From the sequence record MW822011: a stretch of 64,000 nt of DNA, one strand, 5' to 3'. Source of the DNA: Shigella phage TB004. The notes under the pieces were generated by a model that saw only the letters and a list, made by a program, of their open reading frames with translations, searched no databases and was not told where the DNA came from. Each line of letters opens with the position of its first letter. Positions within the stretch are counted from its first letter, which is position 1. Position numbers and translations under genes: made by a program. This document shows, one piece after another, positions 1,918-62,479 of the stretch.

Positions 1918-4900
1918 CTATTTTAACCTGTGTTGGATTTTCAGGGTCTCTTGGATTTCCTATATTATCTTTTAGACGTTTATTAACTAAATCTCTAAAT
2001 TGCGCAAATGTTGTTCCAGATGCATCAAATAAAGGACTCATTAATTTGCGTCGTTCAGATGGCAATTGACCTTGAAATATTGAATTATTATTTTCAGCAT
2101 TATAGTCATCAGGAAGAGGATATTTTACACCAGCCATTGGGCCAGGTTCATAAATTGCTTCGCCTGTTACCGAATCATGCTCAATTTCACCGGTTGGAGT
2201 TAATTTAGCTACTCTATCAGCATATTCAGTAGGCAATCCAGAATCCCATTTGTAGTTTTTGTATTTATTAATTATAGTCTCTGTGTGTTTAAGAGTTAAA
2301 CCAACATTAATAAACATTGTTAAAAGAGTAATTGCTATAAATCCAAATCCTACTGGATGAACAAAACGAATAACGTCAGATTTCCAGCGGGAAGAAGGTA
2401 AATTGGATTTAATTTTCATTACATAATATGATCTACTTCTATTAATATAGTCTATATTATTTTGAAGCAAATCCTTCCCTTTAACCCCGCGAATAATTTC
2501 GCCTTCAAAACTAGGGAGTCTTTCTGCTTTAACTTCTTGACCGGCAATTAATCTTCCCAAAAGATTATGAATAGTTACGGTCCATTGCAATTTACCGTTA
2601 GAATAACTTCTTTCTATATAAGTAACATTACATCTTCCTGTGGCTGTATAAATCGTTTGTCCTACTAAGTCTTCAGTCAAAGAATCAGATTGAACGATTA
2701 TATCATATTCAGTACCAGCCCCAGATTCAATTTCAATTTCAACCTCTTCATTATAAAGAACTTTAAAAAGAAATTTGTATGATGCTTCAATTCCTTTAGT
2801 AGAATAAAAATCATAGCTACGTGATTCAAAAAATCTTGCAACAGCATCACGTTTGTCAGCATTTAAATAAATGTTTCTTTTATATATCTCTGACCACAAA
2901 TATTCCCATGCATGCTCTTCTCGTGGATATTTGTTACGAATTAAATTTCGTAAATTGTTATACTGAGTTCCATATCCATCAGAAAGATATTGAATATATG
3001 CTTCGCAAAATGCTTCAAAATTCGAATCCTGTAACAAATAAGAATCAGGCATCATTGTGCCAATCAACGGTCTTAAATCAGGGTCAGCTAATCCACGCTC
3101 TTCTTCGGGCGACCAAGGAGTTTCATGCTCTTGGTTTTGTAAAAATGCTTTTAAAAATACTTCAGTTGGCTTCCAAATAATTTCGACAGTGTCTCTAACA
3201 CGATAGTTAAAATCATAGTAAGAAATTATTTCACCAGAGGCTTTATAGAAAAGCATCCCAGATGCATATTTTTTAAATCCAGTGAATTTAACATTTGGCA
3301 TTACTATAGTGCAATCGCCATCGTCCCAATATTCATGAACTAATCTATCTGGTGATGTTTCCGGAATATTTTCTATAACTTTAGTGTATTTTAAATCAGC
3401 ATAAACTACTACAACCCTATCAGAGTTGTTTATCCAACAACGTGTGTTAGATTTTTTAGACCAGTTAAAGAATGGTTCAGCGTAGTATTTCATCGGCTGA
3501 GGAGTAAAAGTTTCCCAATCAGACTTTTCATCTGCTATAAATGCCATCATATGATAATGCTTATCAGCTAGCCATTCACGAGGAAATTCATATTTAACGG
3601 CACCGATTAACTGATATTTTGCTGCAGTTTCAGGGTCATTAACAACATTATCACTTAAAAATTTAAAATTACTCGATGATAGAGAAACTAATTTACCATC
3701 AGTTGACATATTCGCATACCCTGGTTGAATACGTCTTCTTTCTTCTTCAGTGTTGCCAAAAACTCTTTTCCATGTTTTTGTGTCATGATTTAAAACATAT
3801 ATTCCTTTATCAGCAGAATCAATTATTTTTGATGTTCTAGGATTAGCATTTAATGTTTCAACTTCACCAATAATAAGAGCAAAAACTTTATCACCGACAG
3901 AATCCATTTTATAGCATACTGCTTTAGGATTTCCGGTTATAGTCATTGTATCAGGTTCAAAAAGTCTTTCCGAATATGTCGGAGATAATGGATCAGAATC
4001 TATAGGTGCATTACTAGTTTTTATGTATCTAACTTTGTCTCTGGCGACAACGTAAATGTAATCATCGGTGCAAGTAATAGCTTCTGCAATACGGTATACA
4101 TTCGCCGGTAAAGTCGCGTAAGTAGCAAAAATTTCTACATCAAATCCTAAATGTAATTGGTCGCCAAGTTTAGCGAATGTTATATCCTGAGAACTAAATC
4201 TGACATCATCAGCTGACCATCTAACATCAGTCGATTTGCGGCCATAGAAAATCTTGTCGTATCCTAGAACGTATGTTGTGTTCGCAGATTGGTAATATAC
4301 TGTCTTAGATAAAGGATATCCTACGCGGTCATTGAAGAGCTTTACAGCTTTCCAAGTTTGTCCTTTATCATTGGATACTTTAACTACAGGTTGATAACGC
4401 TCAAAAAGGTATAAAATCCCTTCTGATTCCATCAAATAAACTCGGTTAATATCCTTACATACTTGCTGAATAGAACCTTGTATTTCATGATACTCATTTT
4501 CACCAATAATAAAATTGCTTATTGATGAAACGTCAACATATGATGGGCTGAACTGAAATGATTCATTCATTAATGCAGCCATTATAGTGTCATTATTAAA
4601 ATTGACATAATCAGAATTATTAAGAGTAAATTTTTCCTGAATGAATTTATTAGCTAATTGCATTTCAATCATGTTTTGAAATGTATAAGCATTTGTAGCA
4701 AAAGTTTCAAACTCTTCGGTATAAATCCAATCAGACTGCTCAAAATCTTGTGCAGCTGTAGCTACTCTAATAACGTATGATGTCAATGGGTCAGCATCAT
4801 CAAAAAAGAAGCTGTTATTTGCAGTATATCCTAAGTTAATCCATCTGTATTGATTACTCGGGAGATTTTCCCCCGAGTTTGTTTTTGTCTCAGCGATTTC

Positions 4901-5008
4901 TACAAAATAGTAGAAATTAGCACCAACGTCATCCCAGCGTACTTGCACCTGATTTGCGGATAACTTGGAAATTCTGAGACTAGTGACTGAAGGTGCTTTT
5001 ACTGTCAT
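1910..5008 (-). CDS. 7: baseplate wedge protein gp7
   Basis: 1032-aa ORF; size and synteny match T4 gp7. Confidence 0.85.
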   Translation of the reverse strand: MTVKAPSVTSLRISKLSANQVQVRWDDVGANFYYFVEIAETKTNSGENLPSNQYRWINLGYTANNSFFFDDADPLTSYVIRVATAAQDFEQSDWIYTEEFETFATNAYTFQNMIEMQLANKFIQEKFTLNNSDYVNFNNDTIMAALMNESFQFSPSYVDVSSISNFIIGENEYHEIQGSIQQVCKDINRVYLMESEGILYLFERYQPVVKVSNDKGQTWKAVKLFNDRVGYPLSKTVYYQSANTTYVLGYDKIFYGRKSTDVRWSADDVRFSSQDITFAKLGDQLHLGFDVEIFATYATLPANVYRIAEAITCTDDYIYVVARDKVRYIKTSNAPIDSDPLSPTYSERLFEPDTMTITGNPKAVCYKMDSVGDKVFALIIGEVETLNANPRTSKIIDSADKGIYVLNHDTKTWKRVFGNTEEERRRIQPGYANMSTDGKLVSLSSSNFKFLSDNVVNDPETAAKYQLIGAVKYEFPREWLADKHYHMMAFIADEKSDWETFTPQPMKYYAEPFFNWSKKSNTRCWINNSDRVVVVYADLKYTKVIENIPETSPDRLVHEYWDDGDCTIVMPNVKFTGFKKYASGMLFYKASGEIISYYDFNYRVRDTVEIIWKPTEVFLKAFLQNQEHETPWSPEEERGLADPDLRPLIGTMMPDSYLLQDSNFEAFCEAYIQYLSDGYGTQYNNLRNLIRNKYPREEHAWEYLWSEIYKRNIYLNADKRDAVARFFESRSYDFYSTKGIEASYKFLFKVLYNEEVEIEIESGAGTEYDIIVQSDSLTEDLVGQTIYTATGRCNVTYIERSYSNGKLQWTVTIHNLLGRLIAGQEVKAERLPSFEGEIIRGVKGKDLLQNNIDYINRSRSYYVMKIKSNLPSSRWKSDVIRFVHPVGFGFIAITLLTMFINVGLTLKHTETIINKYKNYKWDSGLPTEYADRVAKLTPTGEIEHDSVTGEAIYEPGPMAGVKYPLPDDYNAENNNSIFQGQLPSERRKLMSPLFDASGTTFAQFRDLVNKRLKDNIGNPRDPENPTQVKIDE

Positions 5009-6987
5009 TGTGATATAGGCTCCAAATCGATAGTTAAGTATTGTGGACGTAAGTCATTTTCAAATACAATCAGTGAACCATCGCGAGTAAAGATAACATC
5101 ATCGGTTGGGTCAGAATATAATTCAATAGTCTGAACTTCAAATTTTTCAGATGTTAAATTAATTTTAGCGATATTCCAATAAATCACATCAGCTGGGTAA
5201 TTTATTTCACCGATAACATAGTATTTGTCGCGTCCATCAGAATTTGCTAATTTGTTAAAATCGTTGCCTGTATATGGCTGAATGTTTTCATTTTCTGTAA
5301 CATCGCCAGAAGCAAATGGACCAATAATAACTTTACCAATTCCTTTAGAATCTCGGTCTGTTGATACTATGCGAACGTCATATAATACATCTTCTTCTAA
5401 ACCAGTATCAGGATTCACAACCTTTCGTCCAGAATTAAATGAAAACGTATTAGATTCCATAGAACGATCTTTTATTTGATTATTGTATTTAATACCTGCT
5501 TCAGGCGTTTTATAGAAGTTTTGTACTTCACGAACAATTTGAATTGTCGCTGATGAACCAATGATAGAATGATCTGCATCATCTACATATGTCAACATCT
5601 TAGATTTAGCGAAAGATGAGTTAAAAATTTCTACGTCTTCGGTATAATAACGATCAATTTTATCAATTATTTGACCTTCAAGCCACTGTTCGGATTCTTG
5701 CAACTTATTTAAAGCATATGTGACTTTTAAATTAGTCTTAATAAAAAGATAATTAGGAGAAATAATTGATGGCGTAATAGGAGCTAAATTATAGTCTTTG
5801 AGATAATTTTTAATATCTTCGCGTTGTACAGTAGTTAAATACAACCCTGATTTAGGTTTAGCAGCAATAAATGCATAACCAGGTTTAGTAGAATCAGTGA
5901 AAGTCTGAACTGCTTGAATAATAGAACCAAATCTCTCTGAAACGAATGTATCATAGTCAGTCGCAGTTACGCAGCGTTGCTGGGTTTCGCGTTTAATAGT
6001 ACCCAATTCGCGAATACGCTCAATATCTTCTGGATCGCCGCCGCCATCTGCCCCAACAAAATCTGGGTCATCGTTTGGATTTTCATTAATGTTGATGACA
6101 GTTATATTTGTCAATGTATCTGCATATGAAAATCCGACAGCGCCATTCGCATCTGCGCCGTTAGTACTGATGTACTCAATAACAATCGTAGAGTTCTGGG
6201 TAGGTTTAAGACCCCCAATATAATTAGCAGTCAATGCTCCTTCTGCCGCATTAACAGAAATCTCACCTTCACCAAAATAAAACTCAGTATTTCCATCAAT
6301 AGTTTCACGCATGTAGTAAATTGTTGATGTAGAACCAGCATGAACCATTGACTTTCTTGTCCAGTTAATCCATTCTGCTCCATCAACGTATAGTTTAACT
6401 TGGTTTCTATCTATATTTTTGTCATAAATGATAATAGGTGTTAATTTATCATAAATGATTTCAGTTCTTACTATACGTCCCTGGGCCAATTTTAAACGCG
6501 GAAAATATTGGTTATTTTTATCGCGAATAGCAATAACATCTTCGGTAGAGACAAAGTTATAAGGATTAACTGAAGTATCTTTTGCATATGCTAAAAAGCG
6601 AGTACCACGAGGAATAGTAATGTAATTTCTATTCAATGCGTCTGTACAAGTTAGCATAATTTCAGTTTGAGCAGCTGATTTTGAAGTAGGTAAATATCCA
6701 TTATCTTGTGCAGCTTGAACTACTGAACTGCGCAAATTAGCAGTACGCATAAAGCTTTCATATACGGCAGCATTACCAAACTGCTGAATGTATAATGTAT
6801 TATAAGCCAAAAGGTCGCACAGAACGTTTAATCTTGAGCCTTCAAAATCATAATCCAAAAATTCATTTTGGCCATTAAGCCATTCAATGAGGTTTTGTTT
6901 TATTTCAGCAAATGTACCCCCGACGAATATCTCGGGAATAGCATTTGCTGTTCTTGTTAATTGATAATTTACAGGGGTATTTGCCAT
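5005..6987 (-). CDS. 6: baseplate wedge protein gp6
   Basis: 660-aa ORF; size and synteny match T4 gp6. Confidence 0.85.
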   Translation of the reverse strand: MANTPVNYQLTRTANAIPEIFVGGTFAEIKQNLIEWLNGQNEFLDYDFEGSRLNVLCDLLAYNTLYIQQFGNAAVYESFMRTANLRSSVVQAAQDNGYLPTSKSAAQTEIMLTCTDALNRNYITIPRGTRFLAYAKDTSVNPYNFVSTEDVIAIRDKNNQYFPRLKLAQGRIVRTEIIYDKLTPIIIYDKNIDRNQVKLYVDGAEWINWTRKSMVHAGSTSTIYYMRETIDGNTEFYFGEGEISVNAAEGALTANYIGGLKPTQNSTIVIEYISTNGADANGAVGFSYADTLTNITVININENPNDDPDFVGADGGGDPEDIERIRELGTIKRETQQRCVTATDYDTFVSERFGSIIQAVQTFTDSTKPGYAFIAAKPKSGLYLTTVQREDIKNYLKDYNLAPITPSIISPNYLFIKTNLKVTYALNKLQESEQWLEGQIIDKIDRYYTEDVEIFNSSFAKSKMLTYVDDADHSIIGSSATIQIVREVQNFYKTPEAGIKYNNQIKDRSMESNTFSFNSGRKVVNPDTGLEEDVLYDVRIVSTDRDSKGIGKVIIGPFASGDVTENENIQPYTGNDFNKLANSDGRDKYYVIGEINYPADVIYWNIAKINLTSEKFEVQTIELYSDPTDDVIFTRDGSLIVFENDLRPQYLTIDLEPISQ

Positions 6988-32452: not shown

Positions 32453-32914
32453 ATGATTATTAATGAAAGCTCTTGGCACTATAAATTATTCAAAATGTTT
32501 AATGATGAATGGAAACGACCTAAGACATTGTGCGCGTATTTTTGGTCTATTGTCATTCCTACATTCTTCGCTTCTTTTTTCGGATGTACTATACTCGCAG
32601 GTCTAACTATCATCTGCGCAGAAATCATGCAGAAATGGCTTATTTTTGGTAGTTTATGGACTCTTATTCCATCAGCATTTATACTTGCTATTTTGCTTGT
32701 TTTACTTATTATTGGTTCATTTGTTATTCCTGCACAACTGCGTGAAAAATATAAAGATTATAAATGGAAAAAGGATTATGCTTTACATGTAGAAAATATT
32801 GATAGGGCGTATAAAGGTTTACCTCCTATTCAACCCAAGAAATCTATTATCGTCGAATTTTTAAAAACGCGTAAAGCTAAAGTATGTCCTGTTATTGAAT
32901 ATAAGGTTGAATAA
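32453..32914 (+). CDS. predicted membrane protein (153 aa)
   Basis: Several hydrophobic helices. Confidence 0.45.
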   Translation: MIINESSWHYKLFKMFNDEWKRPKTLCAYFWSIVIPTFFASFFGCTILAGLTIICAEIMQKWLIFGSLWTLIPSAFILAILLVLLIIGSFVIPAQLREKYKDYKWKKDYALHVENIDRAYKGLPPIQPKKSIIVEFLKTRKAKVCPVIEYKVE

Positions 32915-33924
32915 TGAAAACTGTAGTTAAGTCTTATTTTGGTAGTCATCTTTATGGAACTTCTACTCCAGAATCTGATGTAGATTTTAAAGAAATCTTT
33001 GTTCCTCCTGCTCGTGATATTCTTATTGGAAATGTTAAAGAGCATATGAGCAAAAACACTAACAACACATCATCTAAAAATACTAAAGATGATATTGACC
33101 ATGAACTATACAGTCTTAAGTATTTCTTTAAATTAGCAGAAGATGGTGAAACCGTAGCATTGGATATGCTCCACACTCCACCTGAACTGGTAGTTAAATC
33201 TGATTTGCCTGATGTATGGAAGTTTATTCAAGACAATCGTTCTCGTTTTTATACGACTAACATGAAATCCTATTTAGGATATGTCCGCAAGCAAGCTTCT
33301 AAATATGGTGTTAAGGGTTCTCGTTTGGCCGCATTGCGTGATGTATTGAAAGTAGTTAATCAAATCCCCGATCAGTGGGTTGATTACCGAGAAGACGGTT
33401 CCATTAAGCAGCGCCGCACTAAAGTTGAAGATATTAAGCATCGTCTTCCAGAAAACGAGTTCTGTGAATGGGTGTTTCATAATCATGAGAAAACAGGCCC
33501 GCAAACGTTCTACACTGTGTTGGGTCGTAAATATCAGACAACACTTTCTCTTATTGAGCTTAAGCAGTCTTTGAATAAACTTGATGCCGAATACGGTGAA
33601 CGTGCTCGTAAGGCTGAAGCGAATGAGGGCATTGACTGGAAAGCTCTGAGTCATGCTTGTCGTGGTGGACTCCAATTGTTGGAAATTTACAAAACTGGTG
33701 ACTTGGTCTATCCACTTCAAGATGCTCCATTTATTCTCGACGTGAAGCTGGGTAAGCATCCATTTAAAACTGTTCAAGAGTTTTTGGAAGATGTGGTCGA
33801 TCAAGTAGAAGCAGCATCCATTGAAGCTTCTAAGAACGGTATGCAGCAAAAAGTAGACATGGGTTTCTGGGATGACTTCCTTGAGAGGGTTTATCTTGAA
33901 AACCATCGAAGTTATTATAAATGA
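32914..33924 (+). CDS. predicted polymerase-beta-superfamily nucleotidyltransferase (336 aa)
   Basis: N-terminal GSHLYGTSTPESDVDF (G-S-x9-D-x-D) and downstream acidic VALDML, the minimal NTase signature. Confidence 0.55.
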   Translation: MKTVVKSYFGSHLYGTSTPESDVDFKEIFVPPARDILIGNVKEHMSKNTNNTSSKNTKDDIDHELYSLKYFFKLAEDGETVALDMLHTPPELVVKSDLPDVWKFIQDNRSRFYTTNMKSYLGYVRKQASKYGVKGSRLAALRDVLKVVNQIPDQWVDYREDGSIKQRRTKVEDIKHRLPENEFCEWVFHNHEKTGPQTFYTVLGRKYQTTLSLIELKQSLNKLDAEYGERARKAEANEGIDWKALSHACRGGLQLLEIYKTGDLVYPLQDAPFILDVKLGKHPFKTVQEFLEDVVDQVEAASIEASKNGMQQKVDMGFWDDFLERVYLENHRSYYK

Positions 33925-33926
33925 TA

Positions 33927-33951
33927 GGGAGCCTTCGGGCTCCCTTTTTTT
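33927..33951 (+). terminator. rho-independent terminator (GGGAGCC-TTCG-GGCTCCC + T7)
   Basis: 7-bp GC-rich stem, UUCG loop, T-run. Confidence 0.65.
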
Positions 33952-34005
33952 ATTTCTTATGGTACTATACAACTATCAACTACTGATACAGATTTGGAGA
34001 ATAAA

Positions 34006-34974
34006 ATGAAAACTGTAACTATCAATAAGGGTATCTACTTCGGTAAAGAAATCTCTGGAACTTTTGAGCTCTTAGGCGAATGGTTCCCAGATAATGCTCC
34101 GGTAGATGCACAAGGAGATGGTAAAGTTTTTGTTGAAATTGACGGTAAACGTCGCGGTGTTTGGGTTTACAAATCAGATATTTCATATGATGGTGTAAAA
34201 GTTGAAGAAGTTAAAGAATCGTATGAAGATATGAAAATCCGCATTAATAAAAGATTTAATGTTATGGGAATGATGACGAATGGTATTATTAACGGAAATA
34301 TTCGTTCATTAATTATCTCTGGCGCAGCAGGTATTGGTAAAACGTATTCTTTAGATAAAGCTTTAAATAAAGCAAATGATAATGAATACATTGAATATAA
34401 AAGCATTAATGGTAAAATCTCTGGTATTGGTCTTTATGAGCAGCTTTGGAATAATCGTGAAGAGAATTCTGTCCTTTTGATTGATGATGTGGATGTTTTC
34501 TCTGATATGGACATTCTTAATCTTCTAAAAGCTGCTCTGGACACTGGAGAGACCCGTAAAGTCTGCTGGAGCACTGCATCTTCTTACTTAGAAGAAAAAG
34601 GCATTGACCGTGAGTTTGAATTTAAAGGAACGATTGTTTTTATCACAAACGTTGACATTGACCGCGAATTAGACCGTGGTACTAAACTTGCCCCACACTT
34701 ACAAGCATTAGTGTCCCGCTCGGTTTATTTGGATTTGGGTGTTCACACTAATGAAGAAATTATGGTCAGGGTTGAAGATGTTATTCTTTCAACTGACATG
34801 ATGCAAAAGCGCGGTCTTTCTGATGAAGAAACTTATAAAGCATTATCATGGATGAAAGTTAATGTTAATCGTTTACGTAATGTTTCACTGCGTACTGCAC
34901 TTTATCTTGCTGACTTTATTATGACCGACAAAAACCATTGGGAAGAAATTGCTGAAACGGTATTATTAAAATGA
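34006..34974 (+). CDS. P-loop ATPase (322 aa)
   Basis: Walker A SGAAGIGKT, Walker B VLLIDDVD; same GGAGAATAAAATG leader as the ip cassettes. Confidence 0.55.
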   Translation: MKTVTINKGIYFGKEISGTFELLGEWFPDNAPVDAQGDGKVFVEIDGKRRGVWVYKSDISYDGVKVEEVKESYEDMKIRINKRFNVMGMMTNGIINGNIRSLIISGAAGIGKTYSLDKALNKANDNEYIEYKSINGKISGIGLYEQLWNNREENSVLLIDDVDVFSDMDILNLLKAALDTGETRKVCWSTASSYLEEKGIDREFEFKGTIVFITNVDIDRELDRGTKLAPHLQALVSRSVYLDLGVHTNEEIMVRVEDVILSTDMMQKRGLSDEETYKALSWMKVNVNRLRNVSLRTALYLADFIMTDKNHWEEIAETVLLK

Positions 34975-35690
34975 AAAAATATTTTACTATCTATAAAACT
35001 GAAATATTAAATTTAAAGACAGGTATTAAGAAATACTATTATGGTCGACATATAACTAATAACATCAATGATTCGTATGTTGGTAGTGGAAATTATATAG
35101 AACGTGTAAAAGTGTCAAATAACCACATATTATCAAAAACGGTTTTAGAAGTTTTTGATAATTATGATAAAATGGTACAAGCTGAAATATTATATATCAT
35201 GGCAGGTAAATTGAAATATGGAAAAAACTGTGTTAACCTGTCATACGGGGGTGAAGGAGGAAAGGTTGCAGATGAAACTAGGATAAAATGCAAAAAGCAT
35301 TCTATAAATTTATGGAAAAATCCTAATCATATACAGCATATGAAGAAAAAGATGAAAGAGGTCACATCCACGCCGGAAGCTAAATTAAACACTTCAATAA
35401 AAACTTCGCAACGATATAAGGACCCAGTTTTTGTTAGAAAAGTTAGTAATATTATTAAAAAGAAACTAAGCAATCCTGTAGTAAAAGAAAAGCATATTAA
35501 TGGAATTAAAGCTGCAAAGCGTTCTCATTTAACTATATGGCAGTATGAAGATGAATTATTCGAGCTTTGGAAAGAAACTAAATATGGATGGAGAAAATTT
35601 ACAAAGGAAGCTATAAAACACGGGTATCCAAATGAACCGTATCGTAGTATGGTATCAACTTTTCAGAAAAGACATTTAGAAGAATCCTAA
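34971..35690 (+). CDS. GIY-YIG-type (Seg-like) homing endonuclease candidate
   Basis: N-terminal TIYKTEILNLKTGIKKYYYGRH...YVGSGNY resembling the GIY...YIG motif; basic C-terminal region. Confidence 0.55.
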   Translation: MKKYFTIYKTEILNLKTGIKKYYYGRHITNNINDSYVGSGNYIERVKVSNNHILSKTVLEVFDNYDKMVQAEILYIMAGKLKYGKNCVNLSYGGEGGKVADETRIKCKKHSINLWKNPNHIQHMKKKMKEVTSTPEAKLNTSIKTSQRYKDPVFVRKVSNIIKKKLSNPVVKEKHINGIKAAKRSHLTIWQYEDELFELWKETKYGWRKFTKEAIKHGYPNEPYRSMVSTFQKRHLEES

Positions 35691-36075: not shown

Positions 36076-36110
36076 TGGTTTACAAGACTGTTCCTCTGTG
36101 GTACTATACA
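36076..36110 (+). promoter_or_regulatory. T4-type early promoter with conserved leader GGTACTATACAACTATCAACTAC
   Basis: GTTTAC ... TGTGGTACTAT; leader shared with copies near 33958 and 62436. Confidence 0.5.
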
Positions 36111-36135
36111 ACTATCAACTACGGAGGAACAGAAA

Positions 36136-36663
36136 ATGAACGCTAAAGATATTTTCAACTTGGTAAATTACAACGATGGTAAATTTAAATCTGAAGCACA
36201 AAGCAAGTTCTTTAACGACATCTCAATCGGAGGTGAAATCACTGTTGATGGAGGACAAATTTACAAATCCCGTTGGAATTGGATCGTTATTATTGATGAG
36301 ATTGGTATTGTAGAAATTTACAAAAATACGAATAAAAATCGTACATTACACTGGTCTCGTGATACTAACGAACAGTACAAAAAGAATAAAGCATCTAAAT
36401 TATCTCGTGTAACTCAAGAAGATATTGAGTTCATCAAGAAAGATATTTTAATGTATGATAACTTAATTGCTGAAGAGCAAGCTGTTATTGATAAATTTGA
36501 TGAGATTAAAGCTTCTCGTGAAATTCCTGATTTTATGAAAGAATCAGTAAATGAACGATACACTCTCATTTCAGAGCGTATTGAAACTTACAAAAAGCAA
36601 AGAGCTGAACGCCAAAATACTCTTCGGAAGTTTGAAGAACGGTTAAAGACGGTACTCGCATAA
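36136..36663 (+). CDS. hypothetical protein (175 aa)
   Basis: ATG-initiated ORF. Confidence 0.45.
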   Translation: MNAKDIFNLVNYNDGKFKSEAQSKFFNDISIGGEITVDGGQIYKSRWNWIVIIDEIGIVEIYKNTNKNRTLHWSRDTNEQYKKNKASKLSRVTQEDIEFIKKDILMYDNLIAEEQAVIDKFDEIKASREIPDFMKESVNERYTLISERIETYKKQRAERQNTLRKFEERLKTVLA

Positions 36664-36718
36664 CCGCTTTATACCAAGGATGGTATAATGGTTCTAAGCC
36701 CTTTTAATTGAGATTATT

Positions 36719-37126
36719 ATGAAACAGTTGATAATTAAAAGATTGAATTTATTGATATGTTGTTTATGTGTAGTAGTTGCATACGGTTATTACGCAATTA
36801 ATGATTATATGCATTATAAAGATTATGATGTTACTGTAGTTAATACCATTACAGGAACACAAGGAAAAGGGTCTAGTTTATCGTTTATTGCCGTATATGA
36901 ACTCAAAGACGGTTATAGATTTAGTGAATATATTTCCCCAGAGATGTATTCTTCAATAGAAAAAGGTGATAATATTACTGTAAGTTTACGTCCTTTCGAC
37001 GTAAAACAGACACTGTTTGATAATATTGTTTGGTTCTTTGGAATGGTATTAGTTCAATCTGTGCGTGGTGCTTATGTAGTCTGTTCAATCATATTCTGTG
37101 TATTTAGCAAAATTGAAATTGAGTGA
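36719..37126 (+). CDS. predicted membrane protein (135 aa)
   Basis: N- and C-terminal hydrophobic helices. Confidence 0.45.
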   Translation: MKQLIIKRLNLLICCLCVVVAYGYYAINDYMHYKDYDVTVVNTITGTQGKGSSLSFIAVYELKDGYRFSEYISPEMYSSIEKGDNITVSLRPFDVKQTLFDNIVWFFGMVLVQSVRGAYVVCSIIFCVFSKIEIE

Positions 37127-37133
37127 GGAAAAT

Positions 37134-38024
37134 ATGTCAGTAGTAATTAATAATGTCAATGCAGTAATTAAATCTTTAGTTAATAAAAAAATGATGAATG
37201 AATGGACTGTATTTCGCAGTGCAGAGCCAGATAAATTTTTTCATAGATTTAACCCAACTTTGGATTTGAATGTTATCGACAAAGATGTTCATGCAGAAAT
37301 TTTAGATAAGTTTAAAGTTGATATTGGATTTGGATTAGAAAAACATCTACAGCGAACAAATGGGTCTGGAATGAGTTTATCTAATCGCATTATGAAAGCC
37401 CTTAATAAAATTGGAGCGTTGTCTCGTATTAATGCGAGTGAAATTCTTCGTAATTATAATAAAGGATATGACCTTTATGGTCGACTAATGCCAAAATTAT
37501 CATTCGATCAAATGATTGCGGATTTGTGGGAAAATCAACGACGATTATTAGCATTGGGCGCTCGATTAGCTAAAGGTCTAGATAAACAAATGATTTTTAA
37601 GACCAATAACACAGAAGACCTTAAATGCTTTAAATTTAGTATTCGTGGAGATGATTATTACATCAGAGCTCACTCTACAGATTATGTTAATATGGGGCAT
37701 CATCTCTGTTTAGCTTTTGAAGTTTTAAAAGAAGCTGGAACATTAGAATATTCATCTGGTGCAAAATGCCCTATTGGTTCAAGTTGTATTTTAATTTATC
37801 GCCCGAATGAATCCAGTTCAACTACATTGCCTACAAAACCTGTACCAGTTCGTAGTAACGAAAAACATTCTGAACAAATTGATTATTTTAATAAACAGAT
37901 TGAAGAGCTGAATATTTCTATTCAACAATATGATGATGAAATTTTCAGACTATCTGGATTGAGTAGTAAAGCTAAATCTGAGCGTGAAAAGTTAATTAAA
38001 ATTGTTGATTTACTTAAATCTTAA
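37134..38024 (+). CDS. coiled-coil-tailed protein, paralog 1 of 4 (296 aa)
   Basis: Internal ALGARLAKGLD motif and C-terminal heptad-rich tail. Confidence 0.5.
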   Translation: MSVVINNVNAVIKSLVNKKMMNEWTVFRSAEPDKFFHRFNPTLDLNVIDKDVHAEILDKFKVDIGFGLEKHLQRTNGSGMSLSNRIMKALNKIGALSRINASEILRNYNKGYDLYGRLMPKLSFDQMIADLWENQRRLLALGARLAKGLDKQMIFKTNNTEDLKCFKFSIRGDDYYIRAHSTDYVNMGHHLCLAFEVLKEAGTLEYSSGAKCPIGSSCILIYRPNESSSTTLPTKPVPVRSNEKHSEQIDYFNKQIEELNISIQQYDDEIFRLSGLSSKAKSEREKLIKIVDLLKS

Positions 38025-38032
38025 GGAACACC

Positions 38033-39061
38033 ATGAAAACTCGTTCTCAAATTGAAGATATGGTTCGTAATGCCAGCTATACTCGTGATGTTATGACATT
38101 TTTATGTGAAAATAATTTAGACCCTGATAAAGTTAATCGTGTTATTCATCACTTTAAGTATACGAATAGCAGTGAATGGATGCGTAATTTTAGTAAAGCG
38201 GGGTATATTACACAAATGACTGCTCGTGAGCAGCTCACCGATTTCTGTAAAACTATTGATTATAAAAATCCTCTATTTGTTCAAGGCGTTGGTCAAAGTA
38301 AGGTCGATTTATCATCTGGATTTTTCAATCCAAATCATTATCGTATTGAATGGAGATTTATTGCTCTGTTCCGTAGACAATTAAAGCAAATTTTATCAAC
38401 TGCGAGTCGATTAAAAGGTTCTGATATTAACTTAAAGAATCTGAAATTTGATGGTTATACTCTTCAGATGGAAGTAAGACCATTAAAAGAAAATAATAGA
38501 ACTGCACGAATTAGCTTTAAACCTAACACAAAAAATTCTCTTTCAATTTGCGAGTGCCTTAAATCGCAGTTGACAGAAGCATTTAAGTATATGGACGTTG
38601 TTGCCGCTGTTCAGTCTAAGATTTTACCTCGTTTTGAGCGATTTAAATTAGACACAACAACATATGAACTTGATATGATCGTTTCATTTAAATACGATTT
38701 TTTGAGAAAGGACGAAGTCCCACAAGAGAAAAAGCAAGAAGTACAAGATAACTTAAATTTAAATTTATCCAATTACTCATCAAACGATCCTAAATTTTGG
38801 ATGTATAGGTCAAGCAATATAGATGCATGTAAACTTAATAAAGTGAGTTTTCTTCCTACTGAAAATTCAAATTTTAAACCTGTAGAAAAATGGCACGCTG
38901 ACGCGATTGAGAAGTCTCTTAAGGCAGTAGATGATGAACTCGTTAAAGCGACCAATGAAGTGCTAGAAGCTGAAAAGGTGTTAGAACAAGCTCAGTCAAG
39001 GGTTCAAAATCTGACAAAGCAACGTTCTAAACTGAACAATGCACTAAATGCACTGAACTAG
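38033..39061 (+). CDS. coiled-coil-tailed protein, paralog 2 of 4 (342 aa)
   Basis: Internal STASRLKGSD motif and C-terminal coiled coil. Confidence 0.5.
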   Translation: MKTRSQIEDMVRNASYTRDVMTFLCENNLDPDKVNRVIHHFKYTNSSEWMRNFSKAGYITQMTAREQLTDFCKTIDYKNPLFVQGVGQSKVDLSSGFFNPNHYRIEWRFIALFRRQLKQILSTASRLKGSDINLKNLKFDGYTLQMEVRPLKENNRTARISFKPNTKNSLSICECLKSQLTEAFKYMDVVAAVQSKILPRFERFKLDTTTYELDMIVSFKYDFLRKDEVPQEKKQEVQDNLNLNLSNYSSNDPKFWMYRSSNIDACKLNKVSFLPTENSNFKPVEKWHADAIEKSLKAVDDELVKATNEVLEAEKVLEQAQSRVQNLTKQRSKLNNALNALN

Positions 39062-39090
39062 TTTACTTTGCCACAAGGATGTGGTATAAT
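39061..39090 (+). promoter_or_regulatory. T4-type early promoter
   Basis: GTTTAC ... TGTGGTATAAT. Confidence 0.5.
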
Positions 39091-39118
39091 GTTCTTACTT
39101 TCTACTGAGGAGATTAAT

Positions 39119-40120
39119 ATGACTCGTAACGAATATATCAAATCATTCAATAGTGTTATTGATGATAAAGCTATACCGATGTTTGGTCAAAATAGCGTTA
39201 TTTCTATTATCAATCAATGGCTCAATAGTGTTGATGCAGGTATTGTTTCTTCTACTAAATTTATTCATGAAATTCGTAAAATTTCTAGTCGTGTAGATAA
39301 AGATGTTATCAAGAAAACCTTTAAAGAGTCTCGTCTTCTTTCATATTTGGTTAATCGTGATATTCTTGGTAATTTTGGGAAAGAAATTAAACGAACCAAA
39401 GATGTAGTAGGATATAATTGGTTCGGTGATGTTAATTCTTATCATCTTAATAATAAAGAAGACCCTGAGAATATTTTTACTCGTCGTTGGATTAGTAATT
39501 TCAGACTTTTCAAAGGACAGATTCTAAAATCAGCTTCTAAATTATGTTATGGCGATTATCGTCAAATTCATCCCTTAGCTGATGATATGATTATCATAAA
39601 AGAATATGAACTTGATAAAAATAAAGTATCTATTTTTGTGAATTATGGATTTTTTACACCAGAAACTAACCAAAAGAACATTAATAAATTTTTCTCAATT
39701 GCTAGCACTATAACTCGTCAATTAGAAACCGCATTACTTTGTATGGAAACAGTAGAAAATATTCATACGTATCCTTTTAAGAATATATGCGGTTGGGAAG
39801 GATATAAAATTGTAGTTAGTCTTCGTGAAGTGAAATGTGCGTACTCACCGACTGATAAAGAAATTTACCAACAAAAATGTGATGAAATTGTGAATACTCC
39901 TAAAGAAGAAATTACACTTGAGGAACTAATGGATAATCTTGATGATTCGCCTGAACCTGTAGAAATTCGTCCAGAAGTTATTGCACTAGAAAAGGCTTAT
40001 AAAGAAGTTCTAGAAATTTCTAATAAAGCGCAGAAAGAATATGAGCAGGCTAAAAGGATTTGGGAAGAATCTGTTAATCGCCTGGATCGTCTTGAACAAG
40101 CTTTACAGTTAATTAAGTAA
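39119..40120 (+). CDS. coiled-coil-tailed protein, paralog 3 of 4 (333 aa)
   Basis: Internal SASKLCYGD motif and C-terminal coiled coil. Confidence 0.5.
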   Translation: MTRNEYIKSFNSVIDDKAIPMFGQNSVISIINQWLNSVDAGIVSSTKFIHEIRKISSRVDKDVIKKTFKESRLLSYLVNRDILGNFGKEIKRTKDVVGYNWFGDVNSYHLNNKEDPENIFTRRWISNFRLFKGQILKSASKLCYGDYRQIHPLADDMIIIKEYELDKNKVSIFVNYGFFTPETNQKNINKFFSIASTITRQLETALLCMETVENIHTYPFKNICGWEGYKIVVSLREVKCAYSPTDKEIYQQKCDEIVNTPKEEITLEELMDNLDDSPEPVEIRPEVIALEKAYKEVLEISNKAQKEYEQAKRIWEESVNRLDRLEQALQLIK

Positions 40121-40172
40121 TTTAAAGCCAAGGATGGCTCGGAGTATAAATCATTAACCAAGTGAGAAGAAC

Positions 40173-41102
40173 ATGAAAACTCGTAAACATTATATTGATT
40201 ATTTTGACAGTCTTATTACTAAACACCGCAATTATCAGATCGGACACAGAGCAGTAATCAATAATATTCTTCGTGATTTCCTTCAATATGTTGGCCAGGA
40301 AAATCATATCTGTAAAGATACTCAAAACGCTTATTCTCATTCGTTAGGTAATTTGCTCGAATGGTTTAAACGTTCTCGTTTATTATCTTCTACTGTGGCT
40401 CGCGATAACATTAAAAACTTTATGAAGCCAAGCTTCATTAAAACTACGACATCTATAACCGATTTGGTTGAATTTACTATTGTTAACGATGTTAAAAAGA
40501 CCCATTTGGCTGATTGGTTATCTACCATTCCTGAAACTAAATTTGCTGATAAATTTGCTTGTCAATTCAATACCCAAGTGAATATGCTTTTTAAGCATGC
40601 TCGCAAACTATTTACCGCGGGCGATGACCGTACAAATACAGTTCATGTTAAGGATTGGGTTATTGCTGATGAAGTAACACACAAGCCAGGTGGTTCATCA
40701 GTGTTAATTAATATCCAGGTTCCTTATTATTACTCACGTAATCTCGGCACCATGACAGCTAAAGAAATTAATAAGCACAACAAAACTATTCGTTCGTTGT
40801 CTTATAAACTTCGCATGATGTTAAAAATTATGGACGTAGTGGAAATGTATGACGAAATCGAAGATAATGGTTCAATGTTATACAGTTCACGCATTCTAAT
40901 CAAACTGAAGAACCTTAATGCATATAAGACAGTTGTAAAAGAGCCTAAAGTAGAAAAGGTTGATAACCTGAGCGAAGAACGTGAATATCTCAATGCTCGC
41001 TTAATTGAAGTTGAAGCTCAGATTGCCGAACACACTAAATTGTTAAAAGCTCTTAATGCAAAAGCAAATGGTTTACGTAATGCTATTGAGGTATTGAAAT
41101 GA
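40173..41102 (+). CDS. coiled-coil-tailed protein, paralog 4 of 4 (309 aa)
   Basis: Internal HARKLFTAGDD motif and C-terminal coiled coil. Confidence 0.5.
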   Translation: MKTRKHYIDYFDSLITKHRNYQIGHRAVINNILRDFLQYVGQENHICKDTQNAYSHSLGNLLEWFKRSRLLSSTVARDNIKNFMKPSFIKTTTSITDLVEFTIVNDVKKTHLADWLSTIPETKFADKFACQFNTQVNMLFKHARKLFTAGDDRTNTVHVKDWVIADEVTHKPGGSSVLINIQVPYYYSRNLGTMTAKEINKHNKTIRSLSYKLRMMLKIMDVVEMYDEIEDNGSMLYSSRILIKLKNLNAYKTVVKEPKVEKVDNLSEEREYLNARLIEVEAQIAEHTKLLKALNAKANGLRNAIEVLK

Positions 41103-41416: not shown

Positions 41417-41654
41417 AGAATATATGAAGACTGCTGAAATGGCAGTCCGCGAATTAGCAATAGCTTATTATTATGAACATGGTAAATTTCCTGATAGATA
41501 CAGCGTGCTTAAATCTGCTTTAACTCGTTCATATAAAAATATGCTATCGGAAGTAAGTGATATTATATACAAACATAAAGAACAAACGGGCCAAAGTCTT
41601 GATTACGACGAGACTTTTAAACAAGTACTAGGAATTAAGGAATATTATGTTTAA
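41402..41654 (+). CDS. hypothetical protein (about 84 aa)
   Basis: ATG within the longer ORF-track frame. Confidence 0.4.
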
Positions 41655-41910
41655 AGTATATGGTTATGATAGCAACATCCATAAATGTGTGTATTGCGAT
41701 AATGCAAAACGTCTTTTGACTGTGAAGAAACAGCCGTTTGAATTTATCAATATTATGCCGGAAAAAGGTGTTTTTGATGATGAGAAAATCGCTGAGCTTC
41801 TGACGAAACTAGGTCGTGATACTCAAATTGGTTTGACAATGCCACAAGTATTTGCTCCTGATGGAAGTCATATTGGTGGATTTGACCAATTGCGGGAATA
41901 CTTTAAATGA
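41647..41910 (+). CDS. nrdC: glutaredoxin/thioredoxin NrdC
   Basis: 87 aa, CVYC active site. Confidence 0.8.
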
Positions 41911-62413: not shown

Positions 62414-62447
62414 CTGTTTACATCTCTGTTCTTCCGTGGTACTATAC
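62414..62447 (+). promoter_or_regulatory. T4-type early promoter with conserved leader GGTACTATACAACTATCAACT
   Basis: GTTTAC ... CGTGGTACTAT. Confidence 0.5.
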
Positions 62448-62479
62448 AACTATCAACTGATACGGATTTGGAGAATGAA

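Follow-up and report, generated by a model that had tools for sequence, protein, structure and literature searches.

An array of four divergent paralogs, including the orthologue of the T4 anti-Dsr1 protein NrdC.5, in the nrdC region of Shigella phage TB004

We analyzed a stretch of 64,000 nucleotides from Shigella phage TB004 (sequence record MW822011; the whole stretch is referred to as the window), in which four consecutive genes at positions 37134–41102 encode large proteins of similar size. The window belongs to a Tequatrovirus, a T4-like coliphage; many Tequatrovirus genomes showed 96–97% identity to the 6 kb around the array, and matches were found in 743 phage records. The four genes are the orthologues of T4 nrdC.6, nrdC.5, nrdC.4, and nrdC.3, and the gene preceding them is the orthologue of nrdC.7. 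The four are anciently diverged tandem duplicates of one gene, and nrdC.5 encodes the orthologue of a T4 protein that neutralizes the bacterial defense protein Dsr1. T4 is the reference lytic phage, and most of its accessory early genes are without a known function.

Organization of the nrdC.6–nrdC.3 array

An earlier reading of the window, made from the sequence alone and without database searches (the sequence-only reading), had described an array of four divergent paralogs of about 300–340 amino acids (aa), each ending in a coiled coil, with a small membrane protein ahead of them. Four consecutive plus-strand open reading frames (ORFs) of 296, 342, 333 (343 from an upstream ATG), and 309 aa were present at 37134–41102, and the ORF ahead of the array (36719–37126, 135 aa) contained two hydrophobic segments, as had been noted. 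In the proposed comparison with the T4 interval, the genes corresponded in order to T4 nrdC.7, nrdC.6, nrdC.5, nrdC.4, and nrdC.3, and the order nrdC.8-nrdC.7-nrdC.6-nrdC.5-nrdC.4-nrdC.3-nrdC.2 was the same in the window, the T4 reference record, and the annotated relative ime09. The features of the array were as follows; motif A and motif B are the two conserved segments described in the next section.

36665–36689, plus strand: MotA-box-like promoter, CGCTTTA-12 nt-TATAAT, before nrdC.7-nrdC.6-nrdC.5 (from the sequence; identical in T4 and JS10).
36719–37126, plus strand: nrdC.7, 135 aa, hydrophobic segments N- and C-terminal (phrog_2547; Kyte-Doolittle windows).
37134–38024, plus strand: nrdC.6, 296 aa (phrog_2257; precomputed PF26899; AlphaFold2 model); motif A aa 86–110, motif B aa 131–157, C-terminal helices from about aa 243.
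38033–39061, plus strand: nrdC.5, 342 aa, orthologue of the T4 anti-Dsr1 protein (Pfam DUF7235; 94% identity to T4 NrdC.5); motif A aa 49–73, motif B aa 113–139, predicted coiled coil aa 282–342.
39062–39090, plus strand: early-type promoter, GTTTAC-17-TGgTATAAT, before nrdC.4 (from the sequence).
39119–40120, plus strand: nrdC.4, 333 aa from the corrected start (phrog_1435; T4 reference coding sequence; AlphaFold2 model); motif A aa 64–88, motif B aa 128–152, C-terminal helix aa 285–332.
40121–40150, plus strand: weak sigma-70-like promoter, TTTAAA-18-TATAAA, before nrdC.3 (from the sequence).
40173–41102, plus strand: nrdC.3, 309 aa, a divergent allele (BLASTP to nrdC.4; phrog_1435; 61% identity to T4); motif A aa 61–85, motif B aa 132–156, predicted coiled coil aa 266–309.

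The start of nrdC.4 required correction. The ATG at 39089 is used by many database records and by the longest ORF, and it falls within the −10 hexamer of the gene's own promoter. The ATG at 39119 is preceded by a GAGGAG Shine-Dalgarno sequence, the phrog_1435 alignment begins there, and the resulting 333-aa form is that of the T4 reference record and of most homologues. For these reasons we took 39119 as the start of nrdC.4. The MKTR start that had been noted in two proteins was found in nrdC.5 and nrdC.3; since nrdC.4 begins with MTR from the corrected ATG, three of the four proteins begin with M(K)TR.

The gene nrdC.7 is outside the paralog family and is not a constant companion of the array, being located 3′ of nrdC.2 in Mosigvirus ATK48 and missing from the JS10 array. 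On the 3′ side of the array lie nrdC (41647–41910), endonuclease VII, and nrdD.

Homology and predicted architecture of the four proteins

When the four proteins were aligned all against all, as the sequence-only reading had proposed, BLASTP detected a significant relationship only between nrdC.4 and nrdC.3 (E = 2.3e-9, 28% identity over 231 aa). The families recovered by database searches were narrow (57 clusters for nrdC.5, 63 for nrdC.4, and 105 for nrdC.6) and fall into three different precomputed Pfam families. Both nrdC.4 and nrdC.3 matched phrog_1435 over the full length (E = 5.7e-168 and 1.3e-115, respectively), and their homologues carry precomputed PF26897; nrdC.6 matched phrog_2257 over the full length (9.2e-152), and its homologues carry precomputed PF26899; and nrdC.5 matched DUF7235 (PF23882) at profile positions 1–307 of 307 with an E value of 1.8e-118 and 395.9 bits (cut-off 30). 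A hidden Markov model of nrdC.4 and nrdC.3 searched against 1.84 billion representative proteins returned 10 matches, all in the same narrow group, and no cellular relatives were detectable by sequence in this search. One of the 10, a 315-aa Klebsiella-phage protein (P0233), combined an nrdC.4-like core with an nrdC.5-like tail. Apart from DUF7235, scans of all members against Pfam, NCBIfam, and PADLOC gave sub-threshold noise only, and PDB sequence searches with profiles of nrdC.4/nrdC.3 and of nrdC.5 returned nothing beyond designed helical repeats and further spurious matches.

Profile-profile comparison connected the families. The family alignments for hhalign were enriched with proteins from the profile search and with Mosigvirus proteins, and the nrdC.5 family then matched the nrdC.4/nrdC.3 family with a probability of 95.9% and an E value of 5.6e-9 over 266 columns. 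The nrdC.6 family matched the nrdC.4/nrdC.3 family with P values of 2–4e-4 (4.3e-4 at full length) over 185–242 collinear columns, and the nrdC.5 family with a P value of 5.4e-3. Without the coiled coil, the scores were 49.5 for nrdC.5 against nrdC.4/nrdC.3 (P = 1.8e-6), 35.3 for nrdC.6 against nrdC.4/nrdC.3, and 28.8 for nrdC.6 against nrdC.5; reversed or column-shuffled templates scored at most 22, and the unrelated window proteins nrdC.8, nrdC.10, nrdC.11, and NrdD at most 22.7. The weakest link, that of nrdC.6 to the rest of the family, was bridged by the single-copy protein of Enterobacter phage IME523, which matched the nrdC.6 family at 1.1e-6 (score 51.1) and the nrdC.4/nrdC.3 family at 1.7e-8 (63.6). 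The neighboring nrdC.8 was considered as a fifth member owing to its C-terminal heptad region and was rejected; its hhalign scores were 11.7–18.2, as compared with 12–22.7 for unrelated window proteins.

The sequence-only reading had held that, outside the heptad region, the four proteins share only a short internal motif, A(S/R)(R/K)L..G.D, behind a helix containing Trp/Phe. As written, this motif matched none of the four; in the relaxed form [AG][SRA][RK]L.{1,3}G.?D it matched all of them at similar distances from the N-terminus, at aa 142 of nrdC.6, 124 of nrdC.5, 139 of nrdC.4 (149 in the 343-aa ORF), and 143 of nrdC.3, with a single further site among the 18,977 aa of the window ORFs. It was not the sole shared feature. 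A second motif of the type F-K-x-S-R-L-L-S..V.RD.L..F, motif A in the list above, lies about 60 aa upstream of the first (motif B) and reads IMKALNKIGALSRINASEILRNYNK, WMRNFSKAGYITQMTAREQLTDFCK, IKKTFKESRLLSYLVNRDILGNFGK, and LLEWFKRSRLLSSTVARDNIKNFMK in the four proteins; a third common helix has the pattern QL..A...M..V, and all four proteins close with A(L/I)..LK at the C-terminal end.

Structure prediction, which had also been proposed, was carried out with AlphaFold2 for nrdC.4 (mean predicted local distance difference test score, 81) and nrdC.6 (78.5), and the models were compared by the order of their elements and by their neighbors in BFVD. Both models had the same order of secondary-structure elements: about six helices, a small beta element, and a helix-helix-short-helix unit bearing motif B, followed by a long helix between two beta hairpins, then a low-confidence linker and a long C-terminal helix. 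They also shared seven BFVD matches at E ≤ 1e-3, all of them uncharacterized 300–335-aa proteins of T4-like phages (Pectobacterium phage PM2, Enterobacter phage IME523, Acinetobacter phages Acj9, Acj61, and fHyAci03, Klebsiella phage Mineola, and Yersinia phage fHe-Yen9-01), and the nrdC.4 model matched a T4-type NrdC.3 in BFVD at 1.2e-7. In the predicted architecture of the family, a helical bundle at the N-terminus is followed by a central alpha/beta domain, which a disordered linker joins to an amphipathic C-terminal helix of about 45 residues.

A C-terminal coiled coil was predicted for all four proteins: the best 35-aa heptad windows were located in the last 45–60 residues and scored no lower than the 99th percentile of window proteins, and 8–10 of the 10 heptad a/d positions were hydrophobic (10/10 in nrdC.5). 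The corresponding helices in the models spanned residues 285–332 of nrdC.4 and 243–272 plus 277–295 of nrdC.6. The C-terminal helix most likely oligomerizes the protein as a coiled coil.

That the four proteins are not truly homologous, and owe their likeness to a chance short motif and a generic coiled-coil composition, is scarcely credible: the lack of significant pairwise BLASTP matches beyond nrdC.4/nrdC.3 and the three separate Pfam families would agree with it, but the profile scores exceeded every control even without the coiled coil, the IME523 protein links the families, the motifs lie at collinear positions, and the independent models agree in the order of their elements and share structural neighbors. 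The agreement of profile comparison, bridge protein, and models makes the case for four divergent paralogs with a common predicted architecture stronger than the sequence-only reading had put it.

Transcription units and the AGGA-loop palindrome

Several of the genes had been credited with an early promoter of their own containing a shared element. Of the four, nrdC.4 and nrdC.3 were found to have a promoter of their own. Neither nrdC.6 nor nrdC.5 has one; each follows the preceding gene after a gap of 7–8 nt and has a Shine-Dalgarno sequence only. The site before nrdC.7 is MotA-like, and by the T4 consensus we take it to be a middle promoter rather than an early one. The promoter arrangement suggested three transcription units, nrdC.7-nrdC.6-nrdC.5, nrdC.4, and nrdC.3, and all three array promoters were identical in T4.

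The shared element was present at these promoters as a palindrome and not as a simple box. An exact CCAAGGATGG occurred twice, at 36674 before nrdC.7 and at 40128 before nrdC.3, and a variant, CACAAGGATGTGG, occurred before nrdC.4. CCAAGGATGG proved to be the center of a perfect inverted repeat with an AGGA loop, the copies of which in the window were as follows.

36669–36688: palindrome before nrdC.7, TTATACCA[AGGA]TGGTATAA.
39071–39084: palindrome before nrdC.4, in the promoter spacer, CCACA[AGGA]TGTGG.
40126–40139: palindrome before nrdC.3, AGCCA[AGGA]TGGCT.

Each copy starts 5–9 nt past the stop codon upstream of it and extends up to, or almost up to, the −10 hexamer. These three were the only AGGA hairpins with stems of at least 5 bp in the window, in which about 0.4 would be expected by chance on our estimate. 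In ATK48 and JS10 the element was likewise found before paralogs, with other complementary arms (for example CAACCA/TGGTTG, CATCCA/TGGATG, and ACCC/GGGT); copies at the comparison loci were located at about 5872–5885, 6925–6940, and 7945–7960 of L003 and at about 4343–4356 and 6432–6447 of L008. Across seven distinct copies the arms covaried, with 90.5% of cells pairing and four of the six pairs changed on both sides. None of 500 shuffles attained the observed covariation, and slid registers paired at 17–41%. The palindrome was not present at the IME523 promoter.

Either a DNA site within the promoter spacer or a hairpin formed in the RNA of read-through transcripts could account for the palindrome. 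Three other explanations were rejected: GGAG, as expected of a RegB site, follows in some copies only; the embedded ATG of a mini-ORF start is not conserved, being ACG in two Mosigvirus copies; and no T-run stands behind it as in an intrinsic terminator.

Three further sequences were observed upstream of the array. A 24-nt repeat, TGGTACTATACAACTATCAACTAC, comprising a −10-like TACTAT and a leader, was present in exact copies before nrdC.10 (33960–33983) and before nrdC.8 (36099–36122) and with two mismatches far downstream, at 62437–62460; no copies would be expected by chance. A terminator-like hairpin with a C(TTCG)G loop and a T-run lies behind nrdC.11 (33926–33945). The Shine-Dalgarno region of nrdC.10 (about 33990–34005) reads GGAGAATAAAA, which is the published optimal RegB cleavage site (PMC1702504).

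Distribution, variation, and possible function

Homologues were found in T4-like phages only, invariably between nrdC.8/nrdC.10 and nrdC.2. The copy number was one in Klebsiella phage Marfa and Enterobacter phage IME523, three in Mosigvirus ATK48 (nrdC.6-like, nrdC.5-like, and nrdC.3) and in Dhakavirus JS10 (nrdC.6, nrdC.5-like, and nrdC.4), and four in Tequatrovirus. Phage ACG-C40 has a natural deletion from inside nrdC.5 to inside nrdC.3 (4805–5216 of its locus, L007), which left a 71-aa remnant of nrdC.5 and, behind it, the final 72 codons of nrdC.3, and a metagenomic protein (P0056) is a natural in-frame nrdC.5::nrdC.3 chimera without nrdC.4. The deletion and the fusion indicated that array genes are dispensable.

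In amino acid sequence, the window proteins showed 97, 94–95, 96, and 61% identity with T4 nrdC.6, nrdC.5, nrdC.4, and nrdC.3, respectively. The gene-wide ratios of nonsynonymous to synonymous substitution (dN/dS) against T4 were 0.06 for nrdC.6, 0.16 for nrdC.5, and 0.13 for nrdC.4, similar to or slightly above those of neighboring genes, and the orthologues are under purifying selection; gene-wide positive selection was rejected, dN/dS being at most 0.29 throughout the array. For nrdC.3, dS against T4 was about 1, and identity to the window copy among 653 phage records fell into separate classes of 90–99, 74–78, and about 60%. The window nrdC.3 is a mosaic, in which the N-terminal 60 aa are T4-like (83–95%), the coiled coil is conserved in all, and the core showed 90–93% identity with Mosigvirus ATK48 as compared with 31–53% with T4. 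This mosaic indicated that the core domain was exchanged between phage genera. The divergence of the paralogs is old, and what varies at present is mostly the nrdC.3 core, through allele exchange. The host-driven diversification suggested in the sequence-only reading, taken as an ongoing process, received weak support: the paralogs diverged long ago, the orthologues are under purifying selection, and nrdC.3 alone shows allele replacement, with its mosaic core.

The function of one member is known from T4. Srikant et al. (2022; PMC9391042) found that a T4 clone with deletions of accessory genes failed to plate on either ECOR17 or K-12 with ECOR17 dsr1, and that nrdC.5 expressed alone from a plasmid restored plating on dsr1 cells. 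The abortive-infection protein Dsr1 is a SIR2 NADase whose sensor domain is reported to recognize a phage major capsid protein (PMC13581612). The window nrdC.5 product is an orthologue of T4 NrdC.5, with a full-length Pfam match, the same position, and identical flanking promoters; no difference was found, and the anti-Dsr1 activity itself is known from the T4 protein. The proposal that the array encodes host-interaction factors was thereby supported for nrdC.5 through the published T4 genetics. Clear homology to characterized proteins had been named as a point that would speak against that proposal; the homology found, through NrdC.5, supports it instead. In addition, gene 49.2 near the array encodes an anti-OLD protein in T6 (PMC13096335), indicating that the neighborhood carries counter-defense genes.

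Because NrdC.5 is the orthologue of a protein that neutralizes Dsr1, the most likely reading, which we put at slightly better than even, is that the array is a set of anti-defense paralogs, each copy of which would bind and inhibit its own immune protein of the host, or its own variant of one. A single ancestral gene upstream of nrdC.2 and nrdC would have been duplicated in tandem to give nrdC.6, nrdC.5, nrdC.4, and nrdC.3, and each copy would be a soluble, non-essential protein produced ahead of late gene expression. The globular part would confer target specificity and the coiled coil multivalency; the nrdC.3 core swapped between genera, with the N-terminus and the coiled coil constant, fits a specificity module between constant modules. 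The products of nrdC.3, nrdC.4, and nrdC.6 would then probably act in anti-defense as well, each on a separate target, and direct binding is the presumed mode of action. Four points weigh against this. The searchable literature gives no experiment or function for nrdC.3, nrdC.4, or nrdC.6. The products of nrdC.6, nrdC.5, and nrdC.3 are basic (pI 9.1–9.4), which would equally fit nucleic-acid binding. The low dN/dS (0.06–0.16 for nrdC.6, nrdC.5, and nrdC.4) does not point to an arms race now under way among orthologues. Finally, the heptad scores of nrdC.6, nrdC.4, and nrdC.3 are near the 99th percentile and not extreme, and the coiled coil and oligomeric state are predictions.

Alternatively, the four proteins could be subunits of one machine that hetero-oligomerize through their C-terminal helices and serve a single function, either Dsr1 neutralization or a step of host takeover. 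The A(L/I)..LK ending that all four carry on their amphipathic C-terminal helices and the adjacent, partly co-transcribed genes are in keeping with such an assembly. We regard it as unlikely: copy number varies from one to four among related phages, natural phages retain nrdC.6 after losing most of nrdC.5, nrdC.4, and nrdC.3, and plasmid-borne nrdC.5 alone suffices for infection of dsr1 cells (PMC9391042). Marginally less probable still is that these are nucleic-acid-binding early proteins that modulate DNA or RNA transactions of host or phage, the anti-Dsr1 effect of NrdC.5 being indirect. Besides the basic pI values, this is suggested by weak, sub-threshold matches of nrdC.3 aa 30–85 to integrase SAM-like N-terminal domains (PF02899, E = 0.069; NF001399, E = 0.001).

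A third possibility, which we consider improbable, is that the core is a captured tail-terminator or tail-completion fold, and that the proteins are early, inert look-alikes of conserved virion proteins that occupy the binding pockets of pattern-recognition immune sensors, among them Dsr1/Avs7-type and other Avs sensors, which detect structural proteins of phages by their shape. The pockets would be filled before the real late proteins appear, with one sensor family per paralog, and the coiled coil would keep the decoy in an oligomeric state unable to trigger the sensor. This is speculative because the reported Dsr1 trigger is the capsid protein and not a tail terminator. Comparison with known tail terminators (lambda gpU, SPP1 gp17-like, T5 p142, and DUF3168) gave no Pfam match even at E ≤ 10 for 15 family members, and tail terminators were not among the BFVD matches listed for the nrdC.6 model. 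Moreover, the array lies in the early/middle nrdC region (nrdC.8–nrdC.2) with sigma-70 or MotA-type promoters instead of in a late tail module, and its proteins have an extra N-terminal helical domain and the C-terminal coiled coil.

The array was also compared with DSAD1, a protein of SPbeta-like Bacillus phages that counters DSR2. DSAD1 is a functional analogue of NrdC.5, as both are phage proteins that disarm a defense-associated sirtuin NADase, and it acts by direct binding according to published structures. The targets differ, in that DSR2 senses the tail tube whereas Dsr1 is reported to sense the major capsid protein. A search of all PDB chain sequences with the nrdC.5-family profile at E ≤ 10 gave six unrelated weak matches and no DSAD1. 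The T-even counter-defense proteins TifA, Dmd, AdfA, and gp49.2 (anti-OLD), from accessory gene clusters, resemble the array in being non-essential, expressed before the late genes, encoded in hyperplastic regions, and lost or amplified through microhomology recombination. They are single small proteins without paralogs, whereas the array has one putative common fold in three to four large copies of about 300–340 aa.

It is already known that the genes are T4 ORFs and that nrdC.5 has a published role. In the accessible text of PMC9391042, T4 nrdC.5 is treated as a lone uncharacterized gene, and neither the flanking paralogs nor the shared architecture is mentioned. We found no mention in the searchable literature of the relationship of nrdC.3, nrdC.4, and nrdC.6 to nrdC.5, and a literature search found no later work on NrdC.5 or an anti-Dsr1 protein beyond Srikant et al. 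We likewise found no earlier description of the four-gene family relationship, its breadth across T4-like phages, the covarying promoter palindrome, or the domain architecture with a putatively tail-terminator-like core.

If the array is one family with one anti-defense member, nrdC.3, nrdC.4, and nrdC.6, of about 1 kb each, become candidate inhibitors of other E. coli immune systems; as T4 nrdC.5 switches off Dsr1, the three other copies are the obvious candidates for immune evasion. The same logic covers the homologues, present in one or more copies, of T4-like phages that infect Klebsiella, Enterobacter, and Acinetobacter, and certain of these phages are under consideration for therapy. A swappable core flanked by conserved N-terminal helices and a conserved coiled coil suggests where target specificity resides, and the covarying palindrome in the promoter spacers of every array transcription unit is a small regulatory puzzle that would be easy to test.

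Three genes on the 5′ side of the array were also noted. A homing endonuclease of 239 aa (34971–35690; phrog_314, E = 2e-30) lies between nrdC.10 and nrdC.9 and is not there in T4 or ime09. The product of nrdC.11 (32914–33924) is a nucleotidyltransferase family member (phrog_388), and that of nrdC.10 (34006–34974) gave weak matches to P-loop/AAA/STAND-type NTPases; nrdC.11 and nrdC.10 were conserved beside the array in all phages looked at.

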